This document shows positions 2,501 to 63,907 of a stretch of 64,000 bases of DNA, piece by piece; within the stretch, counting starts at the first letter, position 1; the number at the start of each line of letters is the position of its first letter. The notes beneath the pieces are model-generated. The model was not told where the DNA came from and ran no database searches. It was given only the letters and a program-made list of their open reading frames with translations. A program made the position numbers and the translations under genes. This stretch comes from a virus (Duplodnaviria; Caudoviricetes), in IMG/VR virus record IMGVR_UViG_3300028805_000086, positions 1-64,000 of that record; one strand, 5' to 3'.

Positions 2501-4242
2501 TGCTGTCAAATACAGCAACTCCGTATTATTACGGTTTATTTAGAGACAAGGTTATTCGAGGAGAACTTCCAGTTTGCAAAGAAATAGAGATGGAAATGAA
2601 TCGAATCGATGCCTTGATTAGAAATCCCGGTGTCTACTATGATCCAGATGGGATCAATGGTTGGGTAGAATTTTGTGAAAATGAATTAACACTAACTGAT
2701 GGATCCGATCTCTTTTTATTAGATACGTTTAAGCTTTGGGGAGAAGAGATCTTCGGTTGGTATTATTTTGTAGATAGAAGTGTTCCGGTTCCAAATGCTA
2801 GTGGTTCCGGAGTGCATTACGAAACTCGTCGAATTAAGAAACGTTTGACAAATAAACAATTTCTTATAATTCCAAGAAATGCTGCCAAGTCAATGTATGC
2901 GAGTAACATACAAAGTTATTTTTTGACGGTTGATACGTCAACAACTCATCAGATTACAACTGCGCCTACTATGAAGCAGGCTGATGAGGTTATGAGCCCG
3001 ATTAGGACAGCAATAGCCAGATCACGAGGACCTTTATTTAAGTTCTTAACCGATGGAAGTCTTCAAAATACAACCGGTAGTAAAGCTAATCGCCAAAAAT
3101 TAGCATCTACCAAAAAAGGTATTGAAAACTTGCTTACTAATTCTCTTCTTGAGATTCGTCCTATGACTGTTGATAAACTTCAGGGTCTTCGTTGTAAAAT
3201 CGCAACCGTGGATGAATGGTTAAGTGGTGATGTTCGCGAGGATGTTATTGGTGCCATTGAGCAAGGTGCCAGTAAGAATGAAGATTATTTGATTGTTGCC
3301 ACAAGTTCCGAAGGCACTGTTCGAAATGGTAGCGGCGATACTATAAAGATGGAACTCATGAGCATTCTTCGTGGCGAATATTATAACCCGCATGTATCGA
3401 TTTGGTACTATAAGCTTGATGATATTAAAGAAGTTGCTGATCCAGATATGTGGATTAAAGCGAATCCTAATTTAGGTAAGACAGCAACTTATGAAACATA
3501 TCAGTTAGAAGTTGAACGTATGGAAAAAGCTCCCGCCAATCGAAATGATATTCTAGCGAAGCGGTTTAATATTCCTATGGAAGGCTGTACTTATTTCTTT
3601 ACTTATGAAGAAACACTTCCGCATAGAAGAAGAGACTTTTGGCAGATGCCTTGTGCTATGGGAGCCGACCTTTCCCAGGGTGATGACTTTACAGCATTTA
3701 CTTTTATGTTCCCATTAGGCGGAGGCTCATTTGGCATTAAGACTCGTTGCTATATTACTTCTTTAACACTTAATAAATTACCAGCAGCAATGAGAATGAA
3801 ATATGATAGCTTTATAAATGAAGGCAGTTTGATCATCATGGAAGGCACAGTTCTTGAGATGATGGATGTCTATGACGATCTTGATCGCCATATAGCTGAG
3901 TCTGGTTATGATGTGCGATGCTTTGGATACGATCCATATAATGCACGTGGATTTGTTGAACGCTGGATTCGAGAAAATGGTGAATTTGGTGTTGAGAAAG
4001 TAATCCAGGGAGCTAAAACAGAAAGTGTACCTCTTGGAGAACTTAAGAAATTAAGCGAAGAGCGAATGCTTATATTTGATCAGGATCTTATGACATTTGC
4101 TATGGGTAATGCTATTACTCTTGAAGATACAAATGGAAATCGTAAGCTTTTGAAGAAGCGGTATGATCAAAAGATTGACTCTGTGGCAGCCATGATTGAT
4201 GCTTATGTGGCATATAGGTTGAATACAGATATGTTTGAATAA
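2500..4242 (+). CDS. terL: Terminase large subunit
   Basis: Walker A-like IPRNAAKS, Walker B ATVDE, nuclease GADLSQGDDF and KIDSVAAMIDA. Confidence 0.95.
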   Translation: MLSNTATPYYYGLFRDKVIRGELPVCKEIEMEMNRIDALIRNPGVYYDPDGINGWVEFCENELTLTDGSDLFLLDTFKLWGEEIFGWYYFVDRSVPVPNASGSGVHYETRRIKKRLTNKQFLIIPRNAAKSMYASNIQSYFLTVDTSTTHQITTAPTMKQADEVMSPIRTAIARSRGPLFKFLTDGSLQNTTGSKANRQKLASTKKGIENLLTNSLLEIRPMTVDKLQGLRCKIATVDEWLSGDVREDVIGAIEQGASKNEDYLIVATSSEGTVRNGSGDTIKMELMSILRGEYYNPHVSIWYYKLDDIKEVADPDMWIKANPNLGKTATYETYQLEVERMEKAPANRNDILAKRFNIPMEGCTYFFTYEETLPHRRRDFWQMPCAMGADLSQGDDFTAFTFMFPLGGGSFGIKTRCYITSLTLNKLPAAMRMKYDSFINEGSLIIMEGTVLEMMDVYDDLDRHIAESGYDVRCFGYDPYNARGFVERWIRENGEFGVEKVIQGAKTESVPLGELKKLSEERMLIFDQDLMTFAMGNAITLEDTNGNRKLLKKRYDQKIDSVAAMIDAYVAYRLNTDMFE

Positions 4243-11301: not shown

Positions 11302-11844
11302 GTGCTCCAGATTACGATCAAGGGAATGGAAATGTTTGACGAAGAACTGTGCAAACGCGTCAGAACCAAAGATGTTACCTTGCAGCTGGAGCACAGTCTT
11401 GTTTCCATTTCGAAATGGGAAAGCAAATGGAAAACACACTATATAAATAATGATAAGATGACACCCGAAATGAGTCTTGATTATGTACGTTGTATGACGA
11501 TTAGTCAAAATGTGGATCCTAAAGTGTATGACAGGTTAACTCAGGAAAATATGAAAGAGATAATTGAATACATTAATGATCCAATGACGGCAACTACATT
11601 TAAAAAAACAAGTCAGGGCGGAAGTCGAAGCGTTATAACAAATGAAATTATATATTACTGGATGACAACTCAGGGTATTCCATTTGACCCTTGTCAAAAA
11701 TGGCATCTAAATCGGTTGCTTACTTTAATTCGTGTTTGCGATGAAAAGAGTGCACCTAAAAAGCGTATGGGCAAACGTGAAGCCGCAGCTCAGCGCAGGA
11801 ATTTAAATGCAGCAAGACGTGCAAGAATGGGATCCAGAGGATAA
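11302..11844 (+). CDS. Second tail assembly chaperone-like protein
   Basis: LEHSLVSISKWESKW...CQKWHLNRLLTLIRVC; position in the tail module. Confidence 0.65.
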   Translation: MLQITIKGMEMFDEELCKRVRTKDVTLQLEHSLVSISKWESKWKTHYINNDKMTPEMSLDYVRCMTISQNVDPKVYDRLTQENMKEIIEYINDPMTATTFKKTSQGGSRSVITNEIIYYWMTTQGIPFDPCQKWHLNRLLTLIRVCDEKSAPKKRMGKREAAAQRRNLNAARRARMGSRG

Positions 11845-41026: not shown

Positions 41027-41272
41027 ATGTTCTATTTGTTTACCAAATTCCCTATAAAGATTAAGGATCAAGGAAAACGAGTTGGCGAAATCTCAAAAAT
41101 GCTTTCAAAGCATGGATCTAAGATTAAATATACTGAAATATACACGATTGGACTTCAAAGTGCAGTGATTAGTTTTCAAAAGAAGCACGGCCTTGAACCA
41201 ACAGGTGTAGTCGACAAAACTACTTGGAAAGCCCTTCATAAGAAAATCAAAATGGAAGTAAAAATCGCATAG
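41027..41272 (+). CDS. Peptidoglycan-binding-domain protein
   Basis: AVISFQKKHGLEPTGVVDKTTWKAL. Confidence 0.75.
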   Translation: MFYLFTKFPIKIKDQGKRVGEISKMLSKHGSKIKYTEIYTIGLQSAVISFQKKHGLEPTGVVDKTTWKALHKKIKMEVKIA

Positions 41273-41305
41273 GAAACACCTTCTTTAATGAAGGAGGTGT
41301 CTATT

Positions 41306-41491
41306 ATGACATTAGAGAGAGCAATCGAGTTGTTGAAGATTGAACAGGCTTGTGTTGAGCGCAATACTAAAGGATGTGATAGGAATTGCGCAAAATGTGA
41401 TCTTGTTCAAAAAGATTGGGAATTGCTAGACATGTATCAATATGTCATAGACAAAATATCTGGTGATATTTATAAGGCCGTCGTTCGGTGA
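41306..41491 (+). CDS. Small Cys-containing hypothetical protein
   Basis: CDRNCAKCDL; after motif 41265. Confidence 0.7.
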   Translation: MTLERAIELLKIEQACVERNTKGCDRNCAKCDLVQKDWELLDMYQYVIDKISGDIYKAVVR

Positions 41492-41570
41492 ACACGGCTT
41501 TATTTTTTTCTCGCATGATCAACATGTTTATTAATGGAAGGAACTATATAAAAAAAAGGAGGTTTTATCT

Positions 41571-41702
41571 ATGTTTACAACAATTATGATTACGACATTT
41601 ACTGTTATAGGAATTGCCACTACATACAAGAAAGTGGTAGACAAAACGACAAAAATGGCGAATGCATATTTAAAGTATAGAAAAGAAAATTCTGATAAAT
41701 AA
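41571..41702 (+). CDS. 43-aa membrane peptide
   Basis: aggagg RBS; MFTTIMITTFTVIGIATT... Confidence 0.6.
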   Translation: MFTTIMITTFTVIGIATTYKKVVDKTTKMANAYLKYRKENSDK

Positions 41703-41787
41703 TCCTTCCAAAAGAGAGTCAAACATAGACTCTCTTTTTTGCCTCGCACGATCAACATGGCTATTAATGAAAGGAAGGTGTTAAAAA

Positions 41788-41949
41788 ATGAAGATGGAAA
41801 AAATAATTAAAAGAATGAAGAAAGAGTTAGAAAGAAGAGAAAGGAAGACTAAAAAACTGGAAAACCAACTGGATTCACTTCTGGCTGAAGCTATGAGAAT
41901 TACAGAATACGGCTTTAAGGAAGAAAAAAAGGAGGTTACTAAAGTGTAA
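41788..41949 (+). CDS. 53-aa coiled-coil peptide
   Basis: aggaagg RBS; MKMEKIIKRMKKELERRE... Confidence 0.6.
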   Translation: MKMEKIIKRMKKELERRERKTKKLENQLDSLLAEAMRITEYGFKEEKKEVTKV

Positions 41950-42050
41950 AGGGCTTTGCCCTTTCTCTTTTTCTCAAACATGGACTATATTTTTTCGCAT
42001 ATGAAACATGTTTATTAATGGAACCTATAAAATATAAGGAGGTATCTTTT

Positions 42051-42200
42051 ATGTTCACAAAGTTTTGCAGTGTTGTAGGTGCAATAGTGGTAGGAGCTAT
42101 TGGTGGAATACTGTTAGTAGGAGTTATGGACAAAGTAGAGATGGTGTACCTTAAGTTTACAGGTGAAAAGAAGAAAAATGTAAAATTAGAAGAAAAATAA
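42051..42200 (+). CDS. Small membrane protein
   Basis: aggagg RBS; hydrophobic N-terminus. Confidence 0.65.
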   Translation: MFTKFCSVVGAIVVGAIGGILLVGVMDKVEMVYLKFTGEKKKNVKLEEK

Positions 42201-42307
42201 ATGATAAAAAGCAGGCAAAACATGTCCTGCTTTTTTTTCGCATGCCGAACATTTGTATTAATGGAAGATCTTATGATCTTACTAAAAACATTAAAGGAGA
42301 AATAAAC

Positions 42308-42754
42308 ATGAAAGAATTATTAGTAAGACCGATATTCAAGACTCATGGGTTTGAGTCTGGCAAGGAGATTACGGAAGAAGAATTTGAGAATCTTAAAGAA
42401 GAGTTTATTTCTATGCATAATTGTTTTGCTCGTTTAACTAATCCATTGATGGATAAAATTAATGAATCATGGGCGAATTATGAAGAGATTGAGGAGATGT
42501 CGAAGATAATAAATGTTTCATCATCGCTCGATCAGATACGTAAGGCTATGGAAATTAATGATAATACAAGATATTGTGATTGGGTAAAAAAGTGGTATGA
42601 CGAGGTATGTAAGGAAATGGAACGGCTTCCGGATATAAAGAAGTTAAATATTAGACCGTATATCTTTATTGAAGATGAGAATCCAATTCTTGGAGCTCGG
42701 TTGAAGCAAAATGAAAATTGGTGGTTTGAAATGTTTTTAAAAATGATCGAATAA
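42308..42754 (+). CDS. Hypothetical protein
   Basis: aaggag RBS; cassette gene. Confidence 0.7.
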   Translation: MKELLVRPIFKTHGFESGKEITEEEFENLKEEFISMHNCFARLTNPLMDKINESWANYEEIEEMSKIINVSSSLDQIRKAMEINDNTRYCDWVKKWYDEVCKEMERLPDIKKLNIRPYIFIEDENPILGARLKQNENWWFEMFLKMIE

Positions 42755-42831
42755 GAAAATGGCGGTTGAAACATACCGCCAATATTTTTCGCATATGAAA
42801 CACTTTATATAATGAAAGGAGGGCAAATAAT

Positions 42832-43221
42832 ATGCCAGAGAAAAAGACGTTTAAAGATTTTATTAAAGGATGGAAGGACAAGGAATCTATCAAAGACAAA
42901 ATCAAAAGAGGTTTTCGTAAAGGAAAAGAAAAACTGGTTAACACTGTAAAGTGGATCAAAGAGAATCCGCAAGAAGCTGCGATTTACGCTTCTATGATTG
43001 CCGGTCTAACTGGCGTTTTAAAGAAAGGCCTTAGGCATGTGAATCTGAAGCAGGAGCAGCGTATGAAAGATCGGTATATCTATGATTTTAGCAATAGGTG
43101 TTATCTTGAGACAAGAAGAAAACTGAATAGGAATGATGTAGTAAGTATTAATAGGCTTCGTCGCGAACATCCAGGAATGAAGATGAGTGAAGCTCTGGAA
43201 TACTTAAATTTGCTCAAGTAA
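42832..43221 (+). CDS. Hypothetical basic protein
   Basis: aggagg RBS; cassette gene. Confidence 0.7.
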   Translation: MPEKKTFKDFIKGWKDKESIKDKIKRGFRKGKEKLVNTVKWIKENPQEAAIYASMIAGLTGVLKKGLRHVNLKQEQRMKDRYIYDFSNRCYLETRRKLNRNDVVSINRLRREHPGMKMSEALEYLNLLK

Positions 43222-43332
43222 CAAATAAAGCGGTTGAAACATACCGCTTTAATTTTTTGAAAATAGGTCCAAATGACTGGATAAATGTGGTGAATTATCA
43301 TTATTGACCCGCGTAAGAAACACGGTTATTAA

Positions 43333-43424
43333 TGGAATAAGAACCAAAGAAAGGTTATGTAATGATAGACCCGCGTCTATCGATAATTGCAAGTGCGGAC
43401 TTGCGACATATCCTTTCTTTTTTT
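43333..43424 (+). ncRNA. Putative small structured RNA 1
   Basis: After motif 43309. Closing stem gaaaggttatgt/acatatcctttc encloses hairpins gatagac/gtctatc and gcaagt/acttgc; T-tract follows; no convincing ORF. Confidence 0.6.
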
Positions 43425-43470
43425 CAAAATGGAAGTAAAAATAACCTCGCACCATTAACATGTTTATTAA

Positions 43471-43665
43471 TGGAAGAAGTAAGGATAAACCTTGAAGCGG
43501 TCGTATACAGGAATGTATGAATCCGCGCGAAGAAAGTGGATAAATCAAGGAGGTGTCGTATGCAGACATGCATGAATCACTAGCTTCTAAGTAAAAAGGA
43601 GATCTGAAATGATCTAAGGAGAGTTAATAGCTATAACTCGAAAGCAACACGCCCTTTTTATTTTT
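43471..43665 (+). ncRNA. Putative small structured RNA 2
   Basis: After motif 43447. Two copies of a tcgtatRcagRNatgYatgaatc hairpin; several (A)GGA motifs; only very short ORFs. Confidence 0.5.
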
Positions 43666-43688
43666 TCGCATATGAAACATATTATATA

Positions 43689-43871
43689 ATGAAGGAAAGA
43701 TTATTCAACCTTAAGACACCAAAGTGTGGGATAGACGATTGAGATCTATTTGGATTTTAAATCCCCTGAATAATCATAAGTGCTTGCGGAGGCAGCCTTC
43801 ATTGGCTATGTTACGACTAAGTGTCGTTGGTAAGCTTAAGCATGCAGCTTAGCACATGGATTATATTTTTT
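43689..43871 (+). ncRNA. Putative small structured RNA 3
   Basis: After motif 43666. atgaagg/ccttcat and gattattca/tgaataatc close a multi-hairpin domain; no convincing ORF. Confidence 0.55.
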
Positions 43872-43926
43872 TCGCATGATCAACATGGATATTAATGGAG
43901 TAGAAATATGAAAGGAGAGAACAATT

Positions 43927-44133
43927 ATGTTTTTAATTATATTTTGGAGTATAATAGGGATCATAACATTATACGGCTACGTTATTGTAGCAAAAGAATG
44001 CGTATGGGAATTATATACTGATCAGCATATGTTTGAGAACAATAAAGTGCTGAAAGTAATAATGAGCGTAACGTGGCTTGTTACATTCTGGCCGTTTATG
44101 TATGTAATTATTTATAGAGAAATTAAAAAGTGA
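43927..44133 (+). CDS. Small two-TM membrane protein
   Basis: Two hydrophobic segments; RBS aaggag. Confidence 0.7.
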   Translation: MFLIIFWSIIGIITLYGYVIVAKECVWELYTDQHMFENNKVLKVIMSVTWLVTFWPFMYVIIYREIKK

Positions 44134-44159
44134 TTTTAATCAAATATTAAATAATCTAC

Positions 44160-44214
44160 TCCGGAAATAAATCCGGGTAAGGACGAATTAAAAACTCGGA
44201 TTTATTTTTTTCGC
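44160..44214 (+). repeat. ~50-bp duplicated hairpin/spacer, second copy at 49811
   Basis: tccggaaataaatccgggtaaggacgaattaaaaactcggatttattttt identical at both sites. Confidence 0.9.
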
Positions 44215-44263
44215 GTATCGAACATATTTATTAATGGAACTAAAAATGAAAGGGGATAACAAT

Positions 44264-44488
44264 ATGAATGACATGATTGAGCTTCTTGAAACATTGAACG
44301 AAGGATGTGATGTGCTTAGTAAAGCACGTGATCAATATGATAAAATTAAGGATAATTTGATTTTTACAACTGAAGATGGTAAAAAATTTTTAGATCTTTT
44401 GGGATCAATGATCAAAAATACTAATCTAGGGACATTACAGTTCGGAATTATGATGCTAAAGTATCAATTATACAATAAAAATAAATAA
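44264..44488 (+). CDS. Hypothetical protein
   Basis: Cassette gene with RBS. Confidence 0.65.
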   Translation: MNDMIELLETLNEGCDVLSKARDQYDKIKDNLIFTTEDGKKFLDLLGSMIKNTNLGTLQFGIMMLKYQLYNKNK

Positions 44489-44595
44489 TTTTGGTTCCAT
44501 AAAAGCGTACACAAAACGTGTTACGCTTTTTTTTCGCATGATCAACATGGATATTAATGGATAGAATCCAAATAAAATAGAAAGGATGAGGAAAA

Positions 44596-44886
44596 ATGAC
44601 AGCAAAAGAGTATCTTGACAAACTTGATAAAATTGAAGAAAAGAGGTGCAAAAAATTAGCTCTCGATGGGTACAAGTGGTTCTATATTGGGTATATGTTT
44701 GGAAGCGGATATATCCATGATGAAACAAACAACCAAGAAGCTAAAGAAATGGCAAATGAAATTTTAAAGACGTATAAGGATAATCTTGATGTTATTATGA
44801 AAGAATGGATTCTGCCAATAACAAATGAAGAAAATGAGGCAAAAGTTCTAAAATTATGCGAAATTATTCAAAATCTGAAAGTATAA
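44596..44886 (+). CDS. Hypothetical protein
   Basis: Cassette gene with RBS. Confidence 0.7.
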   Translation: MTAKEYLDKLDKIEEKRCKKLALDGYKWFYIGYMFGSGYIHDETNNQEAKEMANEILKTYKDNLDVIMKEWILPITNEENEAKVLKLCEIIQNLKV

Positions 44887-44969
44887 AATATTAATCGTAT
44901 AAAGGGCATTTTGCCCTTTTTTTTTTCGCGTATGAAACACTTTATATAATGAAGGAGGTGGCTTGTATA

Positions 44970-45272
44970 ATGAAAGCTACGGAAGTTGTAAGAAAAGCTA
45001 TATTTGGAATGTATTCGATAGAAGAATTAAAAGAACAGCAAAGGACAATATTCCTTAAGGATATCGATGAACAGTATAGTGACTTTGTAATAGACCACAT
45101 ATTTACAGATAAAGGCGATGGCGTGTTCTATTTCATAGTAGGACTATATGTTATAGATAAAGGGCATTTTGTTCCTTTGTACATTGGAACAAATATTGGG
45201 TATACTTCTAAAGAGCTCGTAAATGAAGCAGCTCGAGTTATAAAAGAAGTCATGAAAAGTTTCAAAAAATAA
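44970..45272 (+). CDS. Hypothetical protein
   Basis: aggaggtg RBS. Confidence 0.7.
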   Translation: MKATEVVRKAIFGMYSIEELKEQQRTIFLKDIDEQYSDFVIDHIFTDKGDGVFYFIVGLYVIDKGHFVPLYIGTNIGYTSKELVNEAARVIKEVMKSFKK

Positions 45273-45360
45273 AGAAAATGCCCACAAAACGTGGGCTCTT
45301 ATTTTTTTTCGTTTACGAAACATGCCTTCTAATGAAAATAATCATTAGGAGGATTTTAAA

Positions 45361-45618
45361 ATGTATGTGATCATTGAGACTCGTAAACAAAAACGAATGC
45401 CTAACGATGATTTTACCGTGCTGTGGACAATTCCATGTCGTGGTTTTACTAGTAAGGAAACGGCGCAAGATTATTTAAAAGGAAATGAGATTTTTAAGAA
45501 ATTGTTGTCAAATAGTAAACAGCATTGGAAACTATCTGAAAGCAGTAATAATCATTTAGTATTCGTTAATGAGTATGGTAGTATTTTAATGGATTACATG
45601 ATAAAACCTAAGGAGTAA
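45361..45618 (+). CDS. Hypothetical protein
   Basis: aggagg RBS. Confidence 0.7.
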   Translation: MYVIIETRKQKRMPNDDFTVLWTIPCRGFTSKETAQDYLKGNEIFKKLLSNSKQHWKLSESSNNHLVFVNEYGSILMDYMIKPKE

Positions 45619-45738
45619 TTATTATAAATAAGAGCTCCTGAAACAAGGACTCTTATTTTTTTTCATTCAAAATGGAAGTTGTACGAAAGTGTACGGACGT
45701 TTTTAAAACATTCTCCAAAACGAAAGGGGAGTGTTGAC

Positions 45739-46872
45739 ATGGAACTTCAAGATATTTATGATTTATTGGAATCGCACCTTGGCAATGGAATATTAAACCG
45801 CTCAAACGAGAAAATGAAAAGAGTTAAACTTCCGATTCCAAAGGAATATGGTGGCGGATGGGCAACTGGCGATACCACAGAAGATGCTATCCGCAACATG
45901 ATTAATCGTTTAAATCTGAAAATTAAAAAAGAAACGCCGTTATTTTCTGATTATGCTAGCAAATGGTTAGAGATAAAGAAAGGCGAGGAACGATCGGAAT
46001 CAACAATTAAGAACTATGAATTCATACTCGAAACTCGCCTTAAACCATTTTTCGAAAATAAGAAAATTAATGAGATTACAGCCGATGATGTACAGCTATA
46101 TTTTAACAGTATAATAGATCTCAGCAAGAGTATGAGCGTGCAAAGTAAAGCAATACTCAGTGGAATCTTCGAAAGAGCAGATCGTAATGGTCTTGTTGAC
46201 AGAAATATTATGAAATACAAGTATCAGACTAGCTCTAAAACTGGTGAGAAAGTAGTTCTCCAGGATGATGAACTCATAAATGTTATTGATAAGCTCGAAG
46301 ATTTGTTATCGACAGGCGACGTACGAGACTATCTATACTTCTGCTTTTTGTGTTTTACAGCGCTTCGAAGAGGGGAAATTCTGGGTCTTAAATGGGCAGA
46401 TATCGACTTTGATAACGATTTGATTTACGTGAATCGCAATGTTACGTTTCCAAATGGCGAAAATAATTATCGAATTGGCAAGCCTAAAGATGGTAGTTCT
46501 GGCATTGTGCATCTTCAAAGTGGATTAAAAGATCATATTCTCAGTTATAAAGGTTCTTCTAAAGAGTACATCATATATAATAGGAAAGAATTCAAAATGG
46601 AACCAATAACCAGGAGTATGTTTTCTAAAATGTGGTATAGATGCCAGAAAGTTCTGGATCTTAAAGGTGCAACGTCACATAGTTTCAGGGCGTCGTATGC
46701 TACGATGATGAATGCGCATTGTGATCACATTGATCCTAAGGCTTTACAGGGAGCTTTACGACATAAAACGCCAGATTTGGCTATTAAAGTCTATACGAAA
46801 GAGAATCATGATAAAACCAGAGCTGCTGAGAAAGAATATGATGATTGGCTTAAGCGAAATTCCGCACTCTGA
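45739..46872 (+). CDS. int: Tyrosine recombinase/integrase
   Basis: SAM-like core-binding region; catalytic TALRRGEILGLKWADIDF, K (PKD), HSFR, LRH, VY. Confidence 0.95.
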   Translation: MELQDIYDLLESHLGNGILNRSNEKMKRVKLPIPKEYGGGWATGDTTEDAIRNMINRLNLKIKKETPLFSDYASKWLEIKKGEERSESTIKNYEFILETRLKPFFENKKINEITADDVQLYFNSIIDLSKSMSVQSKAILSGIFERADRNGLVDRNIMKYKYQTSSKTGEKVVLQDDELINVIDKLEDLLSTGDVRDYLYFCFLCFTALRRGEILGLKWADIDFDNDLIYVNRNVTFPNGENNYRIGKPKDGSSGIVHLQSGLKDHILSYKGSSKEYIIYNRKEFKMEPITRSMFSKMWYRCQKVLDLKGATSHSFRASYATMMNAHCDHIDPKALQGALRHKTPDLAIKVYTKENHDKTRAAEKEYDDWLKRNSAL

Positions 46873-46905
46873 ACACGCCTCTTAATGAAAGGAGGCGAAT
46901 ACGCC

Positions 46906-47298
46906 ATGTTAGAAAAAGAATTAAAAAAGATTCAGGTAGGTACAGGTAAAAAAATAACCGATGATGAGGTCTATTTGAGAATTGAAGACCAATATTCAAT
47001 TACTGGTGTTTTAAATCTGTGCTGGCTTAATGAAGAAGAAACTGAAAAACTAATAGGCTATTTGCAAGAATCAAAAAGGAGACTGGAAGAAAAAAGAATT
47101 AAATTGAAAGAAATAATTAGTACTACAGATTTTAGCAAAATGTATATAGAATTTGAAAGTAAGTATAATAAGTATCCGGTTACGATGGCTCCTTATGAAG
47201 CATTTGGATGTGCACATAAGGATAATCTAATAGACGATGATACATATTATGCAGCGAGTAAATATTATGGAAAAATGTGGAATTATGTTGGAGACTAA
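46906..47298 (+). CDS. Hypothetical protein
   Basis: aggagg RBS; motif 46862 overlaps the int stop codon. Confidence 0.7.
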   Translation: MLEKELKKIQVGTGKKITDDEVYLRIEDQYSITGVLNLCWLNEEETEKLIGYLQESKRRLEEKRIKLKEIISTTDFSKMYIEFESKYNKYPVTMAPYEAFGCAHKDNLIDDDTYYAASKYYGKMWNYVGD

Positions 47299-47403
47299 TT
47301 TCTTTTGGAAGATCGAACACCGGTCTTCCTTTTTCGCGCAAGAAACACCTCTTATAATGAAGAAACCGTAGGTTTCTAATATTATAATAGGAGGTATCTA
47401 AAA

Positions 47404-47730
47404 ATGGGTACAGTTACGATTGTAGGAGCAATGGTCTATGAAAATGATGGAGGAATGCCTGGAAAAATGATAATCGATACTCTATTCGGAGTATTTAGCA
47501 CCAGAGCGAAAGCTATGGATGTGTGGAATGACAAGTTGGAAACATATGGAATTACCAACGTCAAAGCATACAGTCCGATGAAGAACTGGCTGGTGCCGGG
47601 AGTTACGAATAGGTATTTATATCTTAATTCCTTGGGGCATTCTTGTGAAAAACAGGACGATGCAGATTTTATAGTTGAAATGTACATTAAAGATGTAGAG
47701 ATCGACCACGTATTAGAACCAGGGGAATGA
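47404..47730 (+). CDS. Hypothetical protein
   Basis: aggagg RBS. Confidence 0.7.
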   Translation: MGTVTIVGAMVYENDGGMPGKMIIDTLFGVFSTRAKAMDVWNDKLETYGITNVKAYSPMKNWLVPGVTNRYLYLNSLGHSCEKQDDADFIVEMYIKDVEIDHVLEPGE

Positions 47731-47984
47731 ACAATGGAAAAGAAGGGGACACAAAACGTGTTCTCTTCACTTTTTCAAAAATGCATAATTATACAATTCA
47801 TATGGAACAAAAAATTGGATAATAAGAAAAATGCTGGAATGCTTATATTTCAAAGGAAAGAGGCGATTTAAAGAATTCAAAATGGAATAGAAAATGGAAT
47901 ATTTTAGGATTGTTAAGTGTACGGACGACTATTTCTAGGTAAATGAAAAACCCCGGAAGCCTTGATATTCTTGACTTCCGGGCC

Positions 47985-48028
47985 GTACACCATTAGGGAC
48001 TCGAACCCTAGACACCCTGATTAAGAGT
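47985..48028 (-). other. attP core: 3' half of tRNA-Lys(CTT)
   Basis: Minus strand ACTCTTAATCAGGGTGTCTAGGGTTCGAGTCCCTAATGGTGTAC gives the anticodon loop (CTT), T-arm and 3' acceptor strand; the 5' half is absent; near int. Confidence 0.85.
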
Positions 48029-48121
48029 TAGGAAAAATGTATAATTATGCATTGATCTATAAAATATTCATATAATATACAAAATGAAAGGAGAAGGGCG
48101 GTTTATATTCCGCGATTTTTT

Positions 48122-48307
48122 ATGAAGAAGGTTTATTATATTCTGTGGTTGATTGCTAGTTTTAAACTCGGTTTAGCTATCGGTGATATGCAAATTGAGG
48201 AACTTAAGAAAAGAATAAGTGAACTTGAGAAACGTAAAGAAGAAAAGAAAGAAATAATTAAACGACTTAAGGAAATGATTGCTAGATATCGAATTGATTG
48301 CGCATAA
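48122..48307 (+). CDS. Small TM + coiled-coil protein
   Basis: Hydrophobic N-terminus, charged C-terminus. Confidence 0.55.
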   Translation: MKKVYYILWLIASFKLGLAIGDMQIEELKKRISELEKRKEEKKEIIKRLKEMIARYRIDCA

Positions 48308-48415
48308 AAATAGGTATTGAAAAAGATTGCCCACAAAACGTGGGCTTTCTTTTTTCGCATCCAAAACACGGCTAATAATGGGAAACCAATAAATAATTTA
48401 AGGAGGAATCTAAAA

Positions 48416-48616
48416 ATGGATACTCAGAAAGCTAAGAGAATTGTGGCAGGTTGTCTTATGGTGACCAACGTGGCACTGGCGGTTATTAATATTGCTAGCG
48501 TCAGATTGGCATTGAAAGAAAGCGAAGAAAAGCAGATCGAAGCTGACACTAAGTTTAATGAGTTTTTGGGATTTTTGGAAAATAAATTCGATACAAGGTT
48601 TCCCAAACAGGAATAA
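48416..48616 (+). CDS. Small membrane protein
   Basis: aggagg RBS; one TM. Confidence 0.7.
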   Translation: MDTQKAKRIVAGCLMVTNVALAVINIASVRLALKESEEKQIEADTKFNEFLGFLENKFDTRFPKQE

Positions 48617-48701
48617 AAGATTGCCCGCAAAACGCGGGCTTTCTTTTTTCGCACTTTAAACATTGCGATATATGGAATGATATTTTAAAGGAGGTTTTAA
48701 T

Positions 48702-49076
48702 ATGGCTAAAACTAAAATGTTGGGTTCATTCATTATTTGTGGTGTATACGTGGCTGCAATATGTTGGTATATGCACTATTTAAAAAAAGTAATGAATCCG
48801 GTAAAAACTTTGGCTGAACCAATCGAAAGAAAGGAGCAAAAGAAAAAAATATCGGCCCAAAATAAAGAAAGAGCTAGAATAAAAGAGGCAAAAAGAAGGC
48901 TGTTGGAATGCGAAAAAGCTTTAAATAGGCTTAAACATAATGCTGAGATCGAAGGAAAAGGAAAAACAGTATTAGAATTTATTAATTTTGTTGAAGAGAA
49001 TGATGATCTTCGACAGATTGTAAATGAGAATGCTATTATCCTAAAAGATCTTGGTAAGAACAAGAAGGAGTTTTGA
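48702..49076 (+). CDS. TM + coiled-coil protein
   Basis: aggagg RBS. Confidence 0.7.
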   Translation: MAKTKMLGSFIICGVYVAAICWYMHYLKKVMNPVKTLAEPIERKEQKKKISAQNKERARIKEAKRRLLECEKALNRLKHNAEIEGKGKTVLEFINFVEENDDLRQIVNENAIILKDLGKNKKEF

Positions 49077-49177
49077 GTATTCTGCAGTAAGAGCTATGAA
49101 AAACATGGCTCTTTCTTTTTCGCATATGAAACACACTTATTAATGGTAAACCATAAAATAAAAAAGAAGGTATTTTT

Positions 49178-49543
49178 ATGTTTAAAAAGCTTAAGGAATT
49201 AATAAGAAAGGATAAGATTTTGAACGAAAAGATAACAAATATGGTTAATGAAACAAAAGAAGGAACTATGGAACTGTTTAAAAGTACTAAGAAATTAGAA
49301 TATCAGAATGGGATTCTTGCTGAAATTCATCAGGATCTTGATGAAAATTATTATGGAGTAGAGTCTTATGATGCAGAAAAGAATGATGATAAAAAACTTG
49401 AAATGATGAGGAAAGATATAGAGACATTGACTCGTATTCAAGATAAATTATATGAATGCGGAATAAGCAAAAAACCTCCACAATTTAGAAATTTCGAAGA
49501 ATTTGATAAGTTTATGCAGGGTGATGAACCTTTAAGATTGTAA
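49178..49543 (+). CDS. Hypothetical protein
   Basis: Cassette gene. Confidence 0.7.
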   Translation: MFKKLKELIRKDKILNEKITNMVNETKEGTMELFKSTKKLEYQNGILAEIHQDLDENYYGVESYDAEKNDDKKLEMMRKDIETLTRIQDKLYECGISKKPPQFRNFEEFDKFMQGDEPLRL

Positions 49544-49659
49544 TATCTTATTACGAGCTATGGAAACATAGCTCTTTCTTTTTTGTCTAAAAATGACCTC
49601 GCACGATCAACATGTATATTAATGGAAAGGAAGAACCAAAAATAAAGGAGGAATTGATT

Positions 49660-49758
49660 ATGTTTAGGGAAATGGCAAAAATGATTAAGACTGTGTTCTA
49701 CCTGGCAGGAGCTGCGATTATTATTACAGCAGCGATTGCATTGGCAGGCGTTGTCTAA
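49660..49758 (+). CDS. 32-aa hydrophobic peptide
   Basis: aggagg RBS; MFREMAKMIKTVFYLAGAAIIITAAIALAGVV. Confidence 0.65.
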   Translation: MFREMAKMIKTVFYLAGAAIIITAAIALAGVV

Positions 49759-49924
49759 TCAGAAAACACACAAAAACAAATCTACTAAAATTGAATACGG
49801 AAAATTCCAATCCGGAAATAAATCCGGGTAAGGACGAATTAAAAACTCGGATTTATTTTTTTTTTCGCATGATCAACATGTTTATTAATGGAAACTAAAT
49901 ATTATTTAAAGGAGGATACAAATT

Positions 49925-50218
49925 ATGGGTACTATTGGAAAGTATGTCTACAAATATGCAATCGAAATTAATGGGGATTTTATGAAAGGGATGGTATATA
50001 CTAATACCAGGGAAGAAGCTTATGAGCGGCTTCCAATTGAGATGCAGATAGGTTTGGAAAAGCTTAATAAAGCTTATCCTTGGGATAAGCATTATATCAT
50101 TACAGAAAAACGGAATCTATTAGGAATTGACGGTCTTGTAGATACTTATCCGGCGTGTGCTGATTATTATTACCCTTGGATAAGTTATAAGGTTAGAAAA
50201 GTAAGGGTACCCGTGTAA
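49925..50218 (+). CDS. Hypothetical protein
   Basis: aggagg RBS. Confidence 0.7.
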   Translation: MGTIGKYVYKYAIEINGDFMKGMVYTNTREEAYERLPIEMQIGLEKLNKAYPWDKHYIITEKRNLLGIDGLVDTYPACADYYYPWISYKVRKVRVPV

Positions 50219-50268
50219 ACAACACGGGTTCTTTTTTTTCGCACATCAAACATGTTGCTAAATAGGAG

Positions 50269-50595
50269 GTGATAAATGTGTGCATCGAAAATAAAATTGA
50301 TCCGCACCATGGAATTCCATATTCTAGGTATATCATTAGCTGGTTGAAAGTCGTGGTTTATGGCGATGTAAATGAACGACTTGAAAACGTAGGGGCTTTT
50401 ATCCATTATGGTAAAGACAAAAGTAAAAAATGGTTAGATTATGATCGCATTTTTTACGGAAATGGTAAATTTACTGAGTGGCTTAAGTCTTTAGGATTCA
50501 ATGACGATGAGTGTCGTGAGATTCGCGAATTGGCCACTAGTGGTAAACTGGAGTTGGAAGATTCAGTACGGAATTTTTTAAAAGAGAACACATAA
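50269..50595 (+). CDS. Hypothetical protein
   Basis: YSRYIISW...FTEWLKSLG...SGKLELE; RBS aggaggt. Confidence 0.7.
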   Translation: MINVCIENKIDPHHGIPYSRYIISWLKVVVYGDVNERLENVGAFIHYGKDKSKKWLDYDRIFYGNGKFTEWLKSLGFNDDECREIRELATSGKLELEDSVRNFLKENT

Positions 50596-50724
50596 ACCGT
50601 ATAATATAGACTATCGTCAAAGGACATAGTCTATATTTTTTCAAAATGGAAGTAAAAACCATCTCGCGTGATCAACATGCTTATTAATGGAAACTATACT
50701 ACTATTTTAAGGGAGGCAAATCTT

Positions 50725-50880
50725 ATGGAAATGTATGGACTTATGTTAATCTTGGGTTTGGTAACCGGTTTATATCTAGGAAAAATCGGTGAGAACCGAC
50801 GGTTAAGAAAGAACCAGCATAATCCTGTAGGAAACCAAAATTGGAAAGGAGGTAGTAACCAGAAGAAGAGGGCTGCATAA
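50725..50880 (+). CDS. Small membrane protein (paralog of next ORF)
   Basis: TM GLVTGLYLGK; basic tail ending QKKRAA. Confidence 0.65.
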   Translation: MEMYGLMLILGLVTGLYLGKIGENRRLRKNQHNPVGNQNWKGGSNQKKRAA

Positions 50881-50990
50881 GTGAATATTATGGAGAGACT
50901 GCAAAACGCAGCCTCTCTTCTTTTTTTCGCACTTCGAACATGCCTTTAAATAGGGAAGGTTCCCTAATATATATTTTAAGGAGGTTCATT

Positions 50991-51197
50991 ATGAACTGGG
51001 TACATGTGGTAATGCTGGCAGTAGGTTTATTTATGGGACTGTATTTTAGTAAAACATTACAGTTCCGAAGGATGGAGAAAGAAAAAGAAGCCATACGTTA
51101 TCACTATCAGAAAAAGTTTAATGAACGACATGATAATAAGAATGGAAAGGTGGTGAACTTCCCGAACACAAATAAGCAGCAAAAGGCTGCAAGATAA
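50991..51197 (+). CDS. Small membrane protein
   Basis: TM GLFMGLYFSK; tail QQKAAR. Confidence 0.65.
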   Translation: MNWVHVVMLAVGLFMGLYFSKTLQFRRMEKEKEAIRYHYQKKFNERHDNKNGKVVNFPNTNKQQKAAR

Positions 51198-51300
51198 TTT
51201 ATTAAAGAGGTCGCAAAACGCGGCCTCATTTTTTTTTTTCGCATACGGAACACGCTGCATAATGGGAGTAATCCTAATATATTTTAAGGAGGAATCTGAA

Positions 51301-51597
51301 ATGTGGATTCTGTATGTAGCAATTTACTTAATTGGCTGTTATGTGGCAATGCGTCTATGCACTAAACAAGAGGTAGAAAATTGTAAACGACTAGAAAAAT
51401 ATGGAAACGAAGCAATTAGAATGTATTACGAAAATAAGCATTACATCGCTTCTCCGGAAAGTACAAAATTACTCGTTGGCAGTGCAATAGCAATAATCAT
51501 TGTTATAATTATGTTATGGCCAATAGTATTCAGTATTACGGCAGTGTGGAATTATATTGATTTTAGAATAACTGAGAAAAAGTTTAAAAAGGATTAA
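51301..51597 (+). CDS. Two-TM membrane protein
   Basis: aggagg RBS; LWP motif like the FWP of the 43927 ORF. Confidence 0.7.
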   Translation: MWILYVAIYLIGCYVAMRLCTKQEVENCKRLEKYGNEAIRMYYENKHYIASPESTKLLVGSAIAIIIVIIMLWPIVFSITAVWNYIDFRITEKKFKKD

Positions 51598-51699
51598 CTT
51601 CTATAAAAGAGGGTCTAACATAGACTCTCTTTTTTCGCATCATTAACACGGCCTTTAATGGGAATACTATTAACCCTAAAAATAAAGGAGGAAGTAAAA

Positions 51700-51972
51700 A
51701 TGAAAAAGGGTTTTATTATCGGAGTAGTATGCACTATGTTGGTAGTTATTGGAGTAATGTTTTACTGTAATTGGTATAATTCAGTTGAACATCTAGGAAT
51801 TAAAATAGATTATGATGATCCATGGATGTTTAATGGAAGTATACATTATTACACTGAATGGATTGACGAACAAGGGAGTAAACATGGGCAATGGATATCC
51901 GAGGATAAAGCATTGTTCATGGTAGAGCAACGAAAAAAAGGGCAAATAGTATATCCTGGAAAATGGAACTAA
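51700..51972 (+). CDS. Membrane-anchored protein
   Basis: aggagg RBS; N-terminal TM. Confidence 0.7.
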   Translation: MKKGFIIGVVCTMLVVIGVMFYCNWYNSVEHLGIKIDYDDPWMFNGSIHYYTEWIDEQGSKHGQWISEDKALFMVEQRKKGQIVYPGKWN

Positions 51973-52093
51973 AAGACCGAGCCGCAAAATTAACAGCGGC
52001 TCTTTCTTTTTTCGCACAAAAAACACAGATGTATATGGGAGGCAATATAAACGTTGCCTCTTAATTTTTTAATAATAAAAAGGAGGAAACAAA

Positions 52094-62965: not shown

Positions 62966-63907
62966 ATGGCACGTATAACTACTAAAGACATTATGGAGAA
63001 ATGCAATGTTAAAGTCCAAACTATTTATAATTGGATCAAAGAAGGTCAGCTTCATGGTATTCAGGTTGGCAATGGAAAACTGAAAAAATGGGAGTTTGAA
63101 GAAGAGGAATTTAATCGGTTTCTTCGTGAAGGAAATTATCCAGGAAAAGCCGATTATATTAAAACGAGCGAGTCTTTTACAAGAACGCCCAACGTTGAAG
63201 AATGTTATCCTGTTAACTTGTTGATGGCTGTTATGAATATCAATTCAGACAGAGATCCGATGGATGAAATTTGGAATTATGATATTCGTGCTTTCAAAGA
63301 AGTTATTAATAGTAAACTTACTGATCGTGAACAGAAAGTAATCAGTATGCGCTATCAATTTGGTGCATCGTTATACGAAGCAGGAAAAGCATTTGACGTT
63401 ACTAAAGAGCGTATACGACAAATCGAAGCAAAGGCTCTGCGTAAGCTTGCGCATTATAGCAGAGAAAATGAAAGATGTATTCTTATTTCTAGAGATAAAT
63501 ATGATGAGCTTAATAGTAAGTATACTAAATTGCTCGTCAGTTATGAGCGGGAATTGGCAAAGAACCACGAGAATACCAACATATTAGACACGATTGATAT
63601 TTGCGAGTTAGATTTGTCAGTTCGTCCGTACAATTGTCTTAAACGGGCAAGTATTAACACGCTCCAGGATATTATGGAGTTTGACAAAAACCAGGAAACC
63701 AAACGTAATTGGCTTACAATCAGAAATCTTGGACGAAGAAGTTTGTATGAAATAGCCTATAAAGTGTTTGATTATTGTGGATATAATATTCATCACCTTA
63801 ATGGCGAAGAAATTAAGGAAGGAGATTCTTATTATGGCCAGCAAGCGTACCAAAGAGCAGTGTATCACTTGGCTGAAAAGCGTAGCGGCGGACAAGAACA
63901 GCCTTGA
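62966..63907 (+). CDS. Excisionase-like HTH + sigma-70 region 4 + RNA polymerase alpha-CTD fusion
   Basis: VQTIYNWIKEGQL; LTDREQKVISMRY...VTKERIRQIEAKALRKL; LDLSVRPYNCLKRASINTL...IRNLGRRSLYEI. Confidence 0.85.
   Translation: MARITTKDIMEKCNVKVQTIYNWIKEGQLHGIQVGNGKLKKWEFEEEEFNRFLREGNYPGKADYIKTSESFTRTPNVEECYPVNLLMAVMNINSDRDPMDEIWNYDIRAFKEVINSKLTDREQKVISMRYQFGASLYEAGKAFDVTKERIRQIEAKALRKLAHYSRENERCILISRDKYDELNSKYTKLLVSYERELAKNHENTNILDTIDICELDLSVRPYNCLKRASINTLQDIMEFDKNQETKRNWLTIRNLGRRSLYEIAYKVFDYCGYNIHHLNGEEIKEGDSYYGQQAYQRAVYHLAEKRSGGQEQP

Follow-up and report, generated by a model that had tools for sequence, protein, structure and literature searches.

What does a phage express from three promoter-like motifs that are followed by no credible gene? 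The question is raised by positions 43309-43871 of a 64,000-nucleotide (nt) window of the Caudoviricetes record IMGVR_UViG_3300028805_000086 (a 95.6-kb IMG/VR phage sequence, rated complete, of which the window covers the first 64 kb; the whole record is labelled G000 below). As an earlier reading made from the letters alone (the sequence-only reading) had stated, motifs at 43309, 43447 and 43666 are followed by about 90, 195 and 180 nt (43332-43424, 43470-43664 and 43689-43870), and we found no open reading frame (ORF) with a normal ribosome-binding site (RBS) in any of these intervals. That reading took the three cassettes to express structured RNAs and not proteins. By sequence comparison, the cassettes contain four structural modules, c1, c2a, c2b and c3, of which c1, c2b and c3 are conserved in distant relatives. 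For c1, c2b and the 5' domain of cassette 3, RNA rather than protein is well supported, because paired positions covary, indels break the reading frames, and G-U pairs are workable on the plus strand only; no frame is open in all lineages. For c2a, comparative support is absent and an RNA is plausible from its predicted fold and from covariation between its two hairpin copies. Our reading is that these are modular small-RNA and attenuator units in what appears to be an accessory region of small single-gene cassettes.

The window phage encodes a TerL-type terminase (nuclease and ATPase domains), a tail lysin and a tyrosine integrase, and its closest relatives derive from rumen- and gut-type metagenome assemblies. 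For DNA searches, 29 related phage records were reached through a conserved 934-amino-acid (aa) protein (G000 92403-95207, outside the window; L041 8404-11208), which has 36-79% identity in 64 IMG/VR contigs and, judged from these matches, marks a large family of 60-100-kb phages. Among the records named below, G001 is a 63-kb relative (L010 is a region of it), G003 is a 95-kb phage (L108 is a region of it), L133 is identical to G006, and L020-L024 are near-identical relatives of the window. Fold z-scores are given relative to dinucleotide shuffles.

Cassette 1: a three-way junction with compensatory changes

The sequence-only reading described cassette 1 as a three-way junction closed by two 12-nt strands. 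This is the minimum-free-energy fold of 43336-43415 (z = -4.07), and an identical fold is predicted in all relatives. Its parts are listed here.

43332-43424, plus strand: cassette 1 RNA c1, a predicted three-way junction (fold and covariance model R1)
43349-43360 / 43406-43417, plus strand: closing helix P1, 12 base pairs (bp) with one mismatch
43364-43370 / 43375-43381, plus strand: helix P2, 7 bp, with loop CCGC at 43371-43374
43382-43387, plus strand: junction J2/3, 6 nt
43388-43394 / 43399-43405, plus strand: helix P3, 7 bp, with loop GCGG at 43395-43398
43418-43424, plus strand: U-tract, seven U directly after P1

Junction J3/1 is absent (0 nt). Homologues identified with R1 in L020-L024, G001/L029 and G003 represent three independent lineages (window/L020, G001/L029 and G003). 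The G001 relative was found via the promoter motif, and its c1 lies right after a 43%-identical homologue of the 129-aa gene upstream of cassette 1. In a whole-genome blastn comparison of G000 and G001, coding DNA does not exceed 72% identity, save for one 86-nt stretch at 81%, and only two short islands reach about 90%; c1 lies in one of them. The inner 53 nt of c1 are identical in G001 and the window except for one inserted loop base (about 98%), and the outer part of P1 differs and stays complementary.

Across five distinct c1 sequences, 96.3% of cells are paired and both partners have changed in five pairs, four of them in P1 and the fifth in P3. None of 500 shuffles reached the observed score, and slid controls paired at 25-49%. 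In this comparison, neither the junctions nor the two loops nor P2 vary. All changes within the core (a single added loop base, a substitution in a junction, two G-C pairs turned to G-U and one compensatory pair) are of kinds that an RNA tolerates. Model R1 scores 93 bits on the plus strand versus 24 bits on the minus strand, which together with the G-U pairs argues for a plus-strand RNA rather than a DNA site. We judged a DNA operator made of the c1 palindromes to be the less likely reading, given that relatives differ by 1 bp in half-site spacing and that the substitutions make G-U pairs. Since the CCGC and GCGG loops never vary, loop-loop pairing between them is possible in the modelled fold, though without backing from covariation. 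P1 measures 12-16 bp across the lineages; the U-tract behind it has seven U in the window and is longer in G001, L029 and G003.

An alternative explanation for the units is that they encode micro-peptides, starting from an ATG in c1, a 7-codon ORF in cassette 2 and a 2-codon ORF in c2b. The c1 ATG is conserved and its frame is common to G001, L029 and G003, as this explanation would have it. However, the window and L020 are out of this frame because of a 1-nt indel, the resulting peptides range from 16 to 70 aa, and the compensatory changes in P3 yield non-conservative residue changes. From the broken frame and the scattered lengths, we conclude that c1 is non-coding.

A scan with a first exact c1 pattern gave one chance match (L019), and refined exact patterns for c1 and c3 returned only records already known. 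When decayed genes were sought with tblastx, nothing but promoter motifs and the c1 core matched.

Cassette 3: a multibranch domain in four lineages

Both closing helices that the sequence-only reading quoted for cassette 3 (7 and 9 bp) are backed by compensatory changes in relatives. The DNA search of the 29 related records found copies 74-78% identical to 43665-43800 in G003 and G006, and the L129 and L133 copies were added through DUF6353 protein-family look-ups. Thus, c3 is represented by four lineages: window/L020, G003, G006 (= L133) and L129.

43689-43802, plus strand: conserved c3 domain, 114 nt, predicted by RNAalifold and model R2
43689-43695 / 43796-43802, plus strand: P1, 7 bp
43699-43707 / 43767-43775, plus strand: P2, 9 bp
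43717-43720 / 43724-43728, plus strand: P2a, hairpin inside P2
43731-43736 / 43743-43749, plus strand: P3, hairpin inside P2
43752-43756 / 43761-43764, plus strand: P4, hairpin inside P2
43782-43785 / 43790-43793, plus strand: P5, weak, with loop GCGG, between the 3' strands of P2 and P1
43803-43870, plus strand: cassette 3 extension, 68 nt, two local hairpins and a T-run, in the window and L020-L024 only

In five distinct c3 sequences, 98.8% of cells are paired, and 16 of the 34 pairs are changed on both sides; again none of 500 shuffles reached the observed value, and slid controls paired at 32-49%. P2 has been wholly rewritten in L129 and is still paired. Three unpaired segments are invariant: CCUUAAGAC, the P3 loop CG-N3-GAGA, and AAGUGCUUGCGG. 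No reading frame is open in all c3 lineages, which is a further point against micro-peptides.

The fold of the 178-nt cassette (43693-43870) is marginal over shuffles (z = -1.96), because only the first 114 nt form the conserved domain. The 68-nt extension is absent in G003, G006 and L129, where P1 is directly followed by a U-tract; in the window, the U-tract comes only past the extension and not right after P1. In two lineages, the window and G003, c3 is free-standing and the next element is a new promoter, from which we conclude that selection maintains the RNA even where no ORF depends on it.

Models R1 and R2 were also applied to 30 related phage records, plus 8 further loci, and returned no divergent copies beyond those described here. 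Distant-mode blastn of 42700-44600 against a phage GenBank collection gave no match, and the neighbouring 129-aa protein, used alone as an IMG/VR query, recovered no related loci. Genome contigs scanned for the c1 core and the neighbour protein family held no match, and hence no host or prophage clue. The Rfam check that the sequence-only reading had proposed was carried out with Rfam 15: nothing in the whole window reached the gathering thresholds, no match appeared in 43200-43950 at E values up to 10 with permissive filters or in the remaining genome, and the small self-cleaving ribozymes (hammerhead and others) likewise gave no Rfam match at E values up to 10. No transfer RNA (tRNA) was found in the window.

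Cassette 2: a duplicated hairpin and a second three-way junction

Cassette 2 folds (43474-43665) with z = -3.63, and two domains are predicted.

43470-43590, plus strand: c2a, 5' module, proposed from folding energy and covariation between the hairpin copies
43471-43476 / 43584-43589, plus strand: closing helix of c2a, predicted
43490-43495 / 43545-43550, plus strand: helix of c2a, predicted
43497-43526, plus strand: hairpin A of c2a, predicted
43552-43581, plus strand: hairpin B of c2a, predicted, a copy of hairpin A
43593-43664, plus strand: c2b, 3' module, three-way junction and U-tract, from its G001 homologue
43593-43599 / 43652-43658, plus strand: P1 of c2b, A-rich/U-rich, followed by the U-tract
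43600-43604 / 43611-43615, plus strand: P2 of c2b, predicted
43616-43620, plus strand: J2/3 of c2b, AAGGA(G), invariant
43621-43626 / 43634-43639, plus strand: P3 of c2b, predicted
43640-43648, plus strand: J3/1 of c2b, CGAAAGCAA, invariant

The duplicated hairpin reported for this cassette is real: its 23-nt cores at 43501 and 43556 are the sole two copies in the genome. Hairpins A and B share an identical internal loop (UCG/AAU) and differ by three compensatory pairs, and two of the three substitutions that separate c2a from its L020 counterpart convert G-U to G-C in predicted helices. Outside the near-identical relatives no c2a homologue was found, and a model of the hairpin (R3) gave no credible copy in the 30 related records.

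Sensitive blastn identified a c2b homologue in G001 (L010 ~4133-4212). Between the two sequences, 6 of 17 predicted pairs differ on both sides in a compensatory manner. Support for c2b is good but thin, as it comes from comparing two lineages. An exact-pattern scan for c2b gave five chance matches, all in coding DNA.

The sequence-only reading also proposed that cassette 2, with about six GGA motifs, is a sponge that titrates host CsrA. Six GGA are indeed present in 191 nt, but the local mean is 4.4 +/- 2.0 and 29% of local windows reach six, so the count is not above chance. One GGA lies in a hairpin loop and two lie inside predicted helices. CsrB/RsmZ-type RNAs have many GGA motifs, mostly in loops and above background, and cassette 2 does not belong among them. 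AAGGA is mildly enriched (4 vs about 1.1 expected), and the loop of hairpin A, ACAGGAAUGU, resembles the CsrA consensus from systematic evolution of ligands by exponential enrichment; against this, hairpin B has no GGA and the c2b homologue in G001 has a single one. We consider a CsrA sponge very improbable.

Cassette 2 also holds what remains of the case for micro-peptides. A strong RBS lies 6 nt before an ATG (at ~43549-43563) in c2a and leads into a 7-codon ORF in the window, but the stop codon is lost in L020, giving 15 codons. Within P2 of c2b (43605-43613; L010 ~4150-4158), shortly after a GGAG-like sequence, there is a two-codon ORF that is ATG-ATC-TAA here and ATG-GTC-TAA in G001 (ATG-NTC-TAA in both). 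It may act as a start-stop element, or the helix may have produced it by coincidence. With the shifted c1 frame and the lack of a shared c3 frame, we see scarcely any likelihood that the units serve to encode peptides.

The promoter-like motif and the likely 5' end of the RNAs

The motif at the head of each cassette has the form CGC-N6-AACA-N6/7-TTAATG and stands, on the plus strand, before almost every small gene between ~41.2 and 52 kb. A loose pattern matches 23 times (5.5 expected), and there are about 24-30 same-strand sites in 41264-52040. Usually the T-run of the terminator before it runs directly into the motif, which lies 15-35 nt before a strong RBS; in ordinary genes of these phages, it is immediately 5' of the RBS.

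43309-43336, plus strand: promoter-like motif of cassette 1, also directly 5' of the homologous RNA in G001, L029 and G003
43446-43474, plus strand: promoter-like motif of cassette 2, with a reused junction sequence 5' of it that is also found at ~41250 and 50636
43665-43691, plus strand: promoter-like motif of cassette 3, also 5' of the homologues in G003, G006 and L129

Because its hexamer spacing is unlike that of sigma-70 promoters, and a sigma-70 scan finds no good plus-strand promoter in this region, we call the motif promoter-like; we infer that it is a promoter. Where the RNA begins is indicated by the modules themselves. In relatives, P1 starts 0-4 nt past the motif's ATG. In c3, it starts inside or right after that ATG, and the two outermost P1 pairs covary, so the RNA would have to start at or before the ATG. 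Taken with the start of P1 in the relatives' c1 and c2b, this would place the transcript 5' end at or just before the ATG, suggesting a promoter that includes its own start site. We assign no polymerase to the motif, since Pfam shows no RNA-polymerase domain in the 934-aa protein, which has only a helix-turn-helix (HTH) and sigma-region-4-like ends. Elsewhere in the window, positions 62966-63907 (plus strand) encode a 313-aa protein made of an N-terminal HTH, a sigma-70 region 4 and an RNA polymerase alpha C-terminal domain. This unusual fusion is a candidate transcription factor for the phage promoter class.

The second island of about 90% identity between G000 and G001 also involves this motif. 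It covers G000 75605-75705 (outside the window; L042 ~11605-11705) and G001 42559-42656, directly follows a promoter motif, includes a T-arm sequence like that of a tRNA and has no match in Rfam. It is probably another conserved non-coding RNA.

Position of the modules in related phages

A stable helix followed by a U-tract, the mark of an intrinsic terminator, is present in c1 and c2b of the window, and for c3 in relatives such as G003 and G006 but not in the window. What comes after each module differs between phages, as follows.

c1 in G001 and L029: RBS, 30-aa ORF, 100-aa ORF and DUF6353 gene, with no promoter motif
c1 in G003: RBS and 89-aa ORF
c2b in G001: between a promoter motif and the RBS of a small ORF, a homologue of the window gene at 41288-41491
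c3 in G006/L133: RBS and DUF6353 gene
c3 in L129: a second hairpin terminator, then RBS and 129-aa ORF
c3 in G003: a new promoter unit
c1, c2 and c3 in the window: a new promoter unit after each

Counted by lineage, five of eight instances are leaders with a built-in terminator before an ORF and three are free-standing. The leader role in relatives was overlooked in the sequence-only reading, and it adds a cis-regulatory reading of the modules. Both c1 and c3 stand upstream of a DUF6353 gene, in different phages, and for the proteins encoded downstream in relatives, the only matches are to families without an assigned function (DUF6353, phrog_16527 and small unknowns).

The modules could therefore be cis-acting, regulated attenuators, in which the closing helix and U-tract would end transcription, except when the invariant junctions and loops are occupied by a factor from phage or host or by a small ligand. 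The leader instances listed above fit this well: c1 leads directly, with no promoter, into an RBS and ORF in G001, L029 and G003, and c3 (G006/L133, L129) and c2b (G001) are placed likewise, in phages whose ordinary genes have the motif immediately before the RBS. That two unrelated folds precede the same gene family is also accommodated, as is the combination of variable helices with invariant junctions and loops, which resembles an aptamer or a protein-binding site. However, the c1 P1 is long enough that it should form without a ligand, and we see no alternative fold that could serve as an antiterminator. In the window, where a fresh promoter follows each unit and c3 has no U-tract right after P1, the attenuators would have to be leaders stacked in series or orphaned by loss of their ORFs through recombination between reused junctions; the junction sequence after c1 is in fact reused elsewhere in the genome. 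The free-standing c3 of G003 fits no better. Overall, we treat regulated attenuation as a sole function as possible, but less probable than the reading that we develop below.

Several further features of the neighbourhood should be noted. The junction sequence after c1 recurs at ~41250 and 50636. Gene cassettes are mosaic, with four window cassettes (43887-45299) replaced by one in the 95%-identical L020, and in L025 the 129-aa gene is directly followed by a small membrane-protein gene with no RNA units. Just 5' of the c3 copy in G003 (L108 1300-1470), there are ~170 nt that are ORF-free and hairpin-rich and have a terminator at the end, which suggests that G003 also clusters non-coding units near c3. 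Around the DUF6353 gene, L127-L134 carry Tad4 (anti-Thoeris), Lar-type restriction alleviation, ADP-ribosyl glycohydrolase, Pyr_excise (pyrimidine-dimer excision), ThyX and DUF2828/DUF7788 genes. This fits an accessory region of anti-defence or host-interaction type around the relatives' DUF6353 gene and c3 copies, by association only.

Conservation of the modules might also be trivial, if they are merely elaborate intrinsic terminators or RNA-stabilising ends with no specific partner and were spread by recent exchange of cassette pieces. It is true that all modules end in a helix and U-tract, that cassettes are clearly shuffled between relatives and that pairing of 5' and 3' ends also occurs in several ordinary gene cassettes. 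Yet the gene upstream of the cassettes already has its own standard terminator, and simple terminators need no invariant junctions, loops and 7-bp P2 across phages with coding DNA no more than 72% identical. Nor would recent transfer leave compensatory changes in P1, P2, P3 and P4. We regard this explanation as improbable.

End pairing was also examined as a general rule for cassettes. It averages 7.1 bp vs 6.4 bp in the control and reaches at least 8 bp in 35% vs 19%. As this is only modestly above control, the rule was left as weak.

Proposed function

We propose that 43309-43871 comprises three autonomous transcription units with RNA as their cargo, each begun at a phage promoter-like motif. 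The RNAs would be made once this promoter class fires. Each would be compact, with a strand at or near its 5' end paired to the 3' end (P1), and transcription would stop at the U-tract, which we take to be a terminator. That the loops, junctions and other single-stranded positions are invariant implies a specific partner that reads them, most likely a protein. Because each module carries its own intrinsic terminator, it would also throttle transcription into downstream DNA, an effect that relatives would exploit by placing modules as leaders before ORFs.

Our tentative preference is for the short terminated RNA as a product that acts in trans on a protein, with downstream attenuation as a second effect used by relatives. 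Three considerations favour it: the c3 fold is kept by compensatory change in two lineages where it is free-standing, stable RNAs typically have a closed 5'/3' helix and a U-tail, and the long c1 P1 should form unaided. Several observations weigh on the other side. A role purely in cis would explain the leader position in five of eight instances just as well. All three units are missing from one relative that has a 63%-identical neighbour gene, so the units are dispensable. The retention of all three in both the window and L020 is uninformative on selection, since the two are 95-99% identical overall, with the RNA stretch (94-98%) no better conserved than background in the identity profile. 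Antisense targets within the phage were limited to chance-level complementarity of 10-16 nt. Finally, c2a is without comparative support.

A bolder form of the trans-acting reading is that c1, c2b, c3 and more RNAs elsewhere in the genome are an RNA-only toolbox for host takeover or anti-defence in a rumen phage family. Fired by the phage promoter, each RNA would trap a host protein or mimic its ligand, c1 might form kissing-loop oligomers through CCGC/GCGG, and modules would be exchanged like accessory genes. We offer this as speculation and think it rather unlikely in full. The sequence-only reading had taken all three RNAs for early products and suggested anti-defence decoys for cassettes 1 and 3; we regard the decoy idea likewise as speculative and early timing as conjecture.

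Comparison with known systems

To our knowledge, very few phage structured RNAs are understood, and most phage accessory regions have been read for proteins only. In this stretch, three RNA folds have covariation support, and none of them matches an Rfam family. They appear as interchangeable modules, free-standing or as terminator-bearing leaders, across uncultivated phages of gut and rumen that form one large family. At 65-115 nt, they are small, concrete targets for structure probing, partner pull-downs and termination assays, and they contribute to the definition of a promoter class that is not of the sigma-70 type, together with its likely start site.

In architecture, c1 recalls the purine riboswitch (RF00167). 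Its P1 closes a junction with two 7-bp hairpins whose loops are complementary (their pairing is only possible), the 0-nt J3/1 favours stacking of P1 on P3, junctions and loops are invariant where helices vary, and in relatives it is a 5' leader with a terminator. In contrast to the riboswitch, c1 gives no covariance-model match at E = 10 and has loops of 4 nt instead of 7. Its 12-16-bp P1 is the terminator stem itself, with no separate expression platform, and its P2 is invariant.

The three-way junction, the 5'/3' closing helix and the 4-nt complementary loops, with inter- or intramolecular pairing possible, are also reminiscent of phi29 pRNA (RF00044) and of the oligomeric ornate RNAs ROOL and GOLLD (PMC12286853). 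However, c1 has no match to the pRNA model and is ~70 nt long compared with 120 or more. The window phage, at ~96 kb and with a TerL-type terminase, is not a phi29-like podovirus, and the c1 loops are invariant, so that their pairing is not supported by covariation.

Type III toxin-antitoxin systems share the order of promoter, structured RNA, terminator and ORF seen in relatives. They differ in that no tandem-repeat array is present here, the only repeat being the two-copy hairpin in c2a, and the downstream ORFs are not ToxN/AbiQ-like by the searches run.

Phages also use promoter-proximal antitermination and attenuation RNAs, such as lambda nut/boxB, HK022 put and leader-terminator attenuators. 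As in these systems, a conserved hairpin RNA lies 3' of a phage promoter and 5' of promoterless genes, with a terminator between. Unlike lambda nut and HK022 put, the conserved RNA here encloses or is enclosed by the terminator helix, three unrelated folds occupy one position, and no ORF depends on the modules in the window.

Phages are also known to encode small RNAs, such as RNA anti-CRISPRs and those of prophages, that have a promoter and an intrinsic terminator of their own. The window units differ from them in having no match in Rfam 15 and no antisense target in the phage, and resemble them in being stand-alone promoter-RNA-terminator units with compact folds and no coding capacity, in an accessory region. 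By these comparisons, the modules are new RNA families within a known kind, that of phage-encoded small structured RNAs and leaders.

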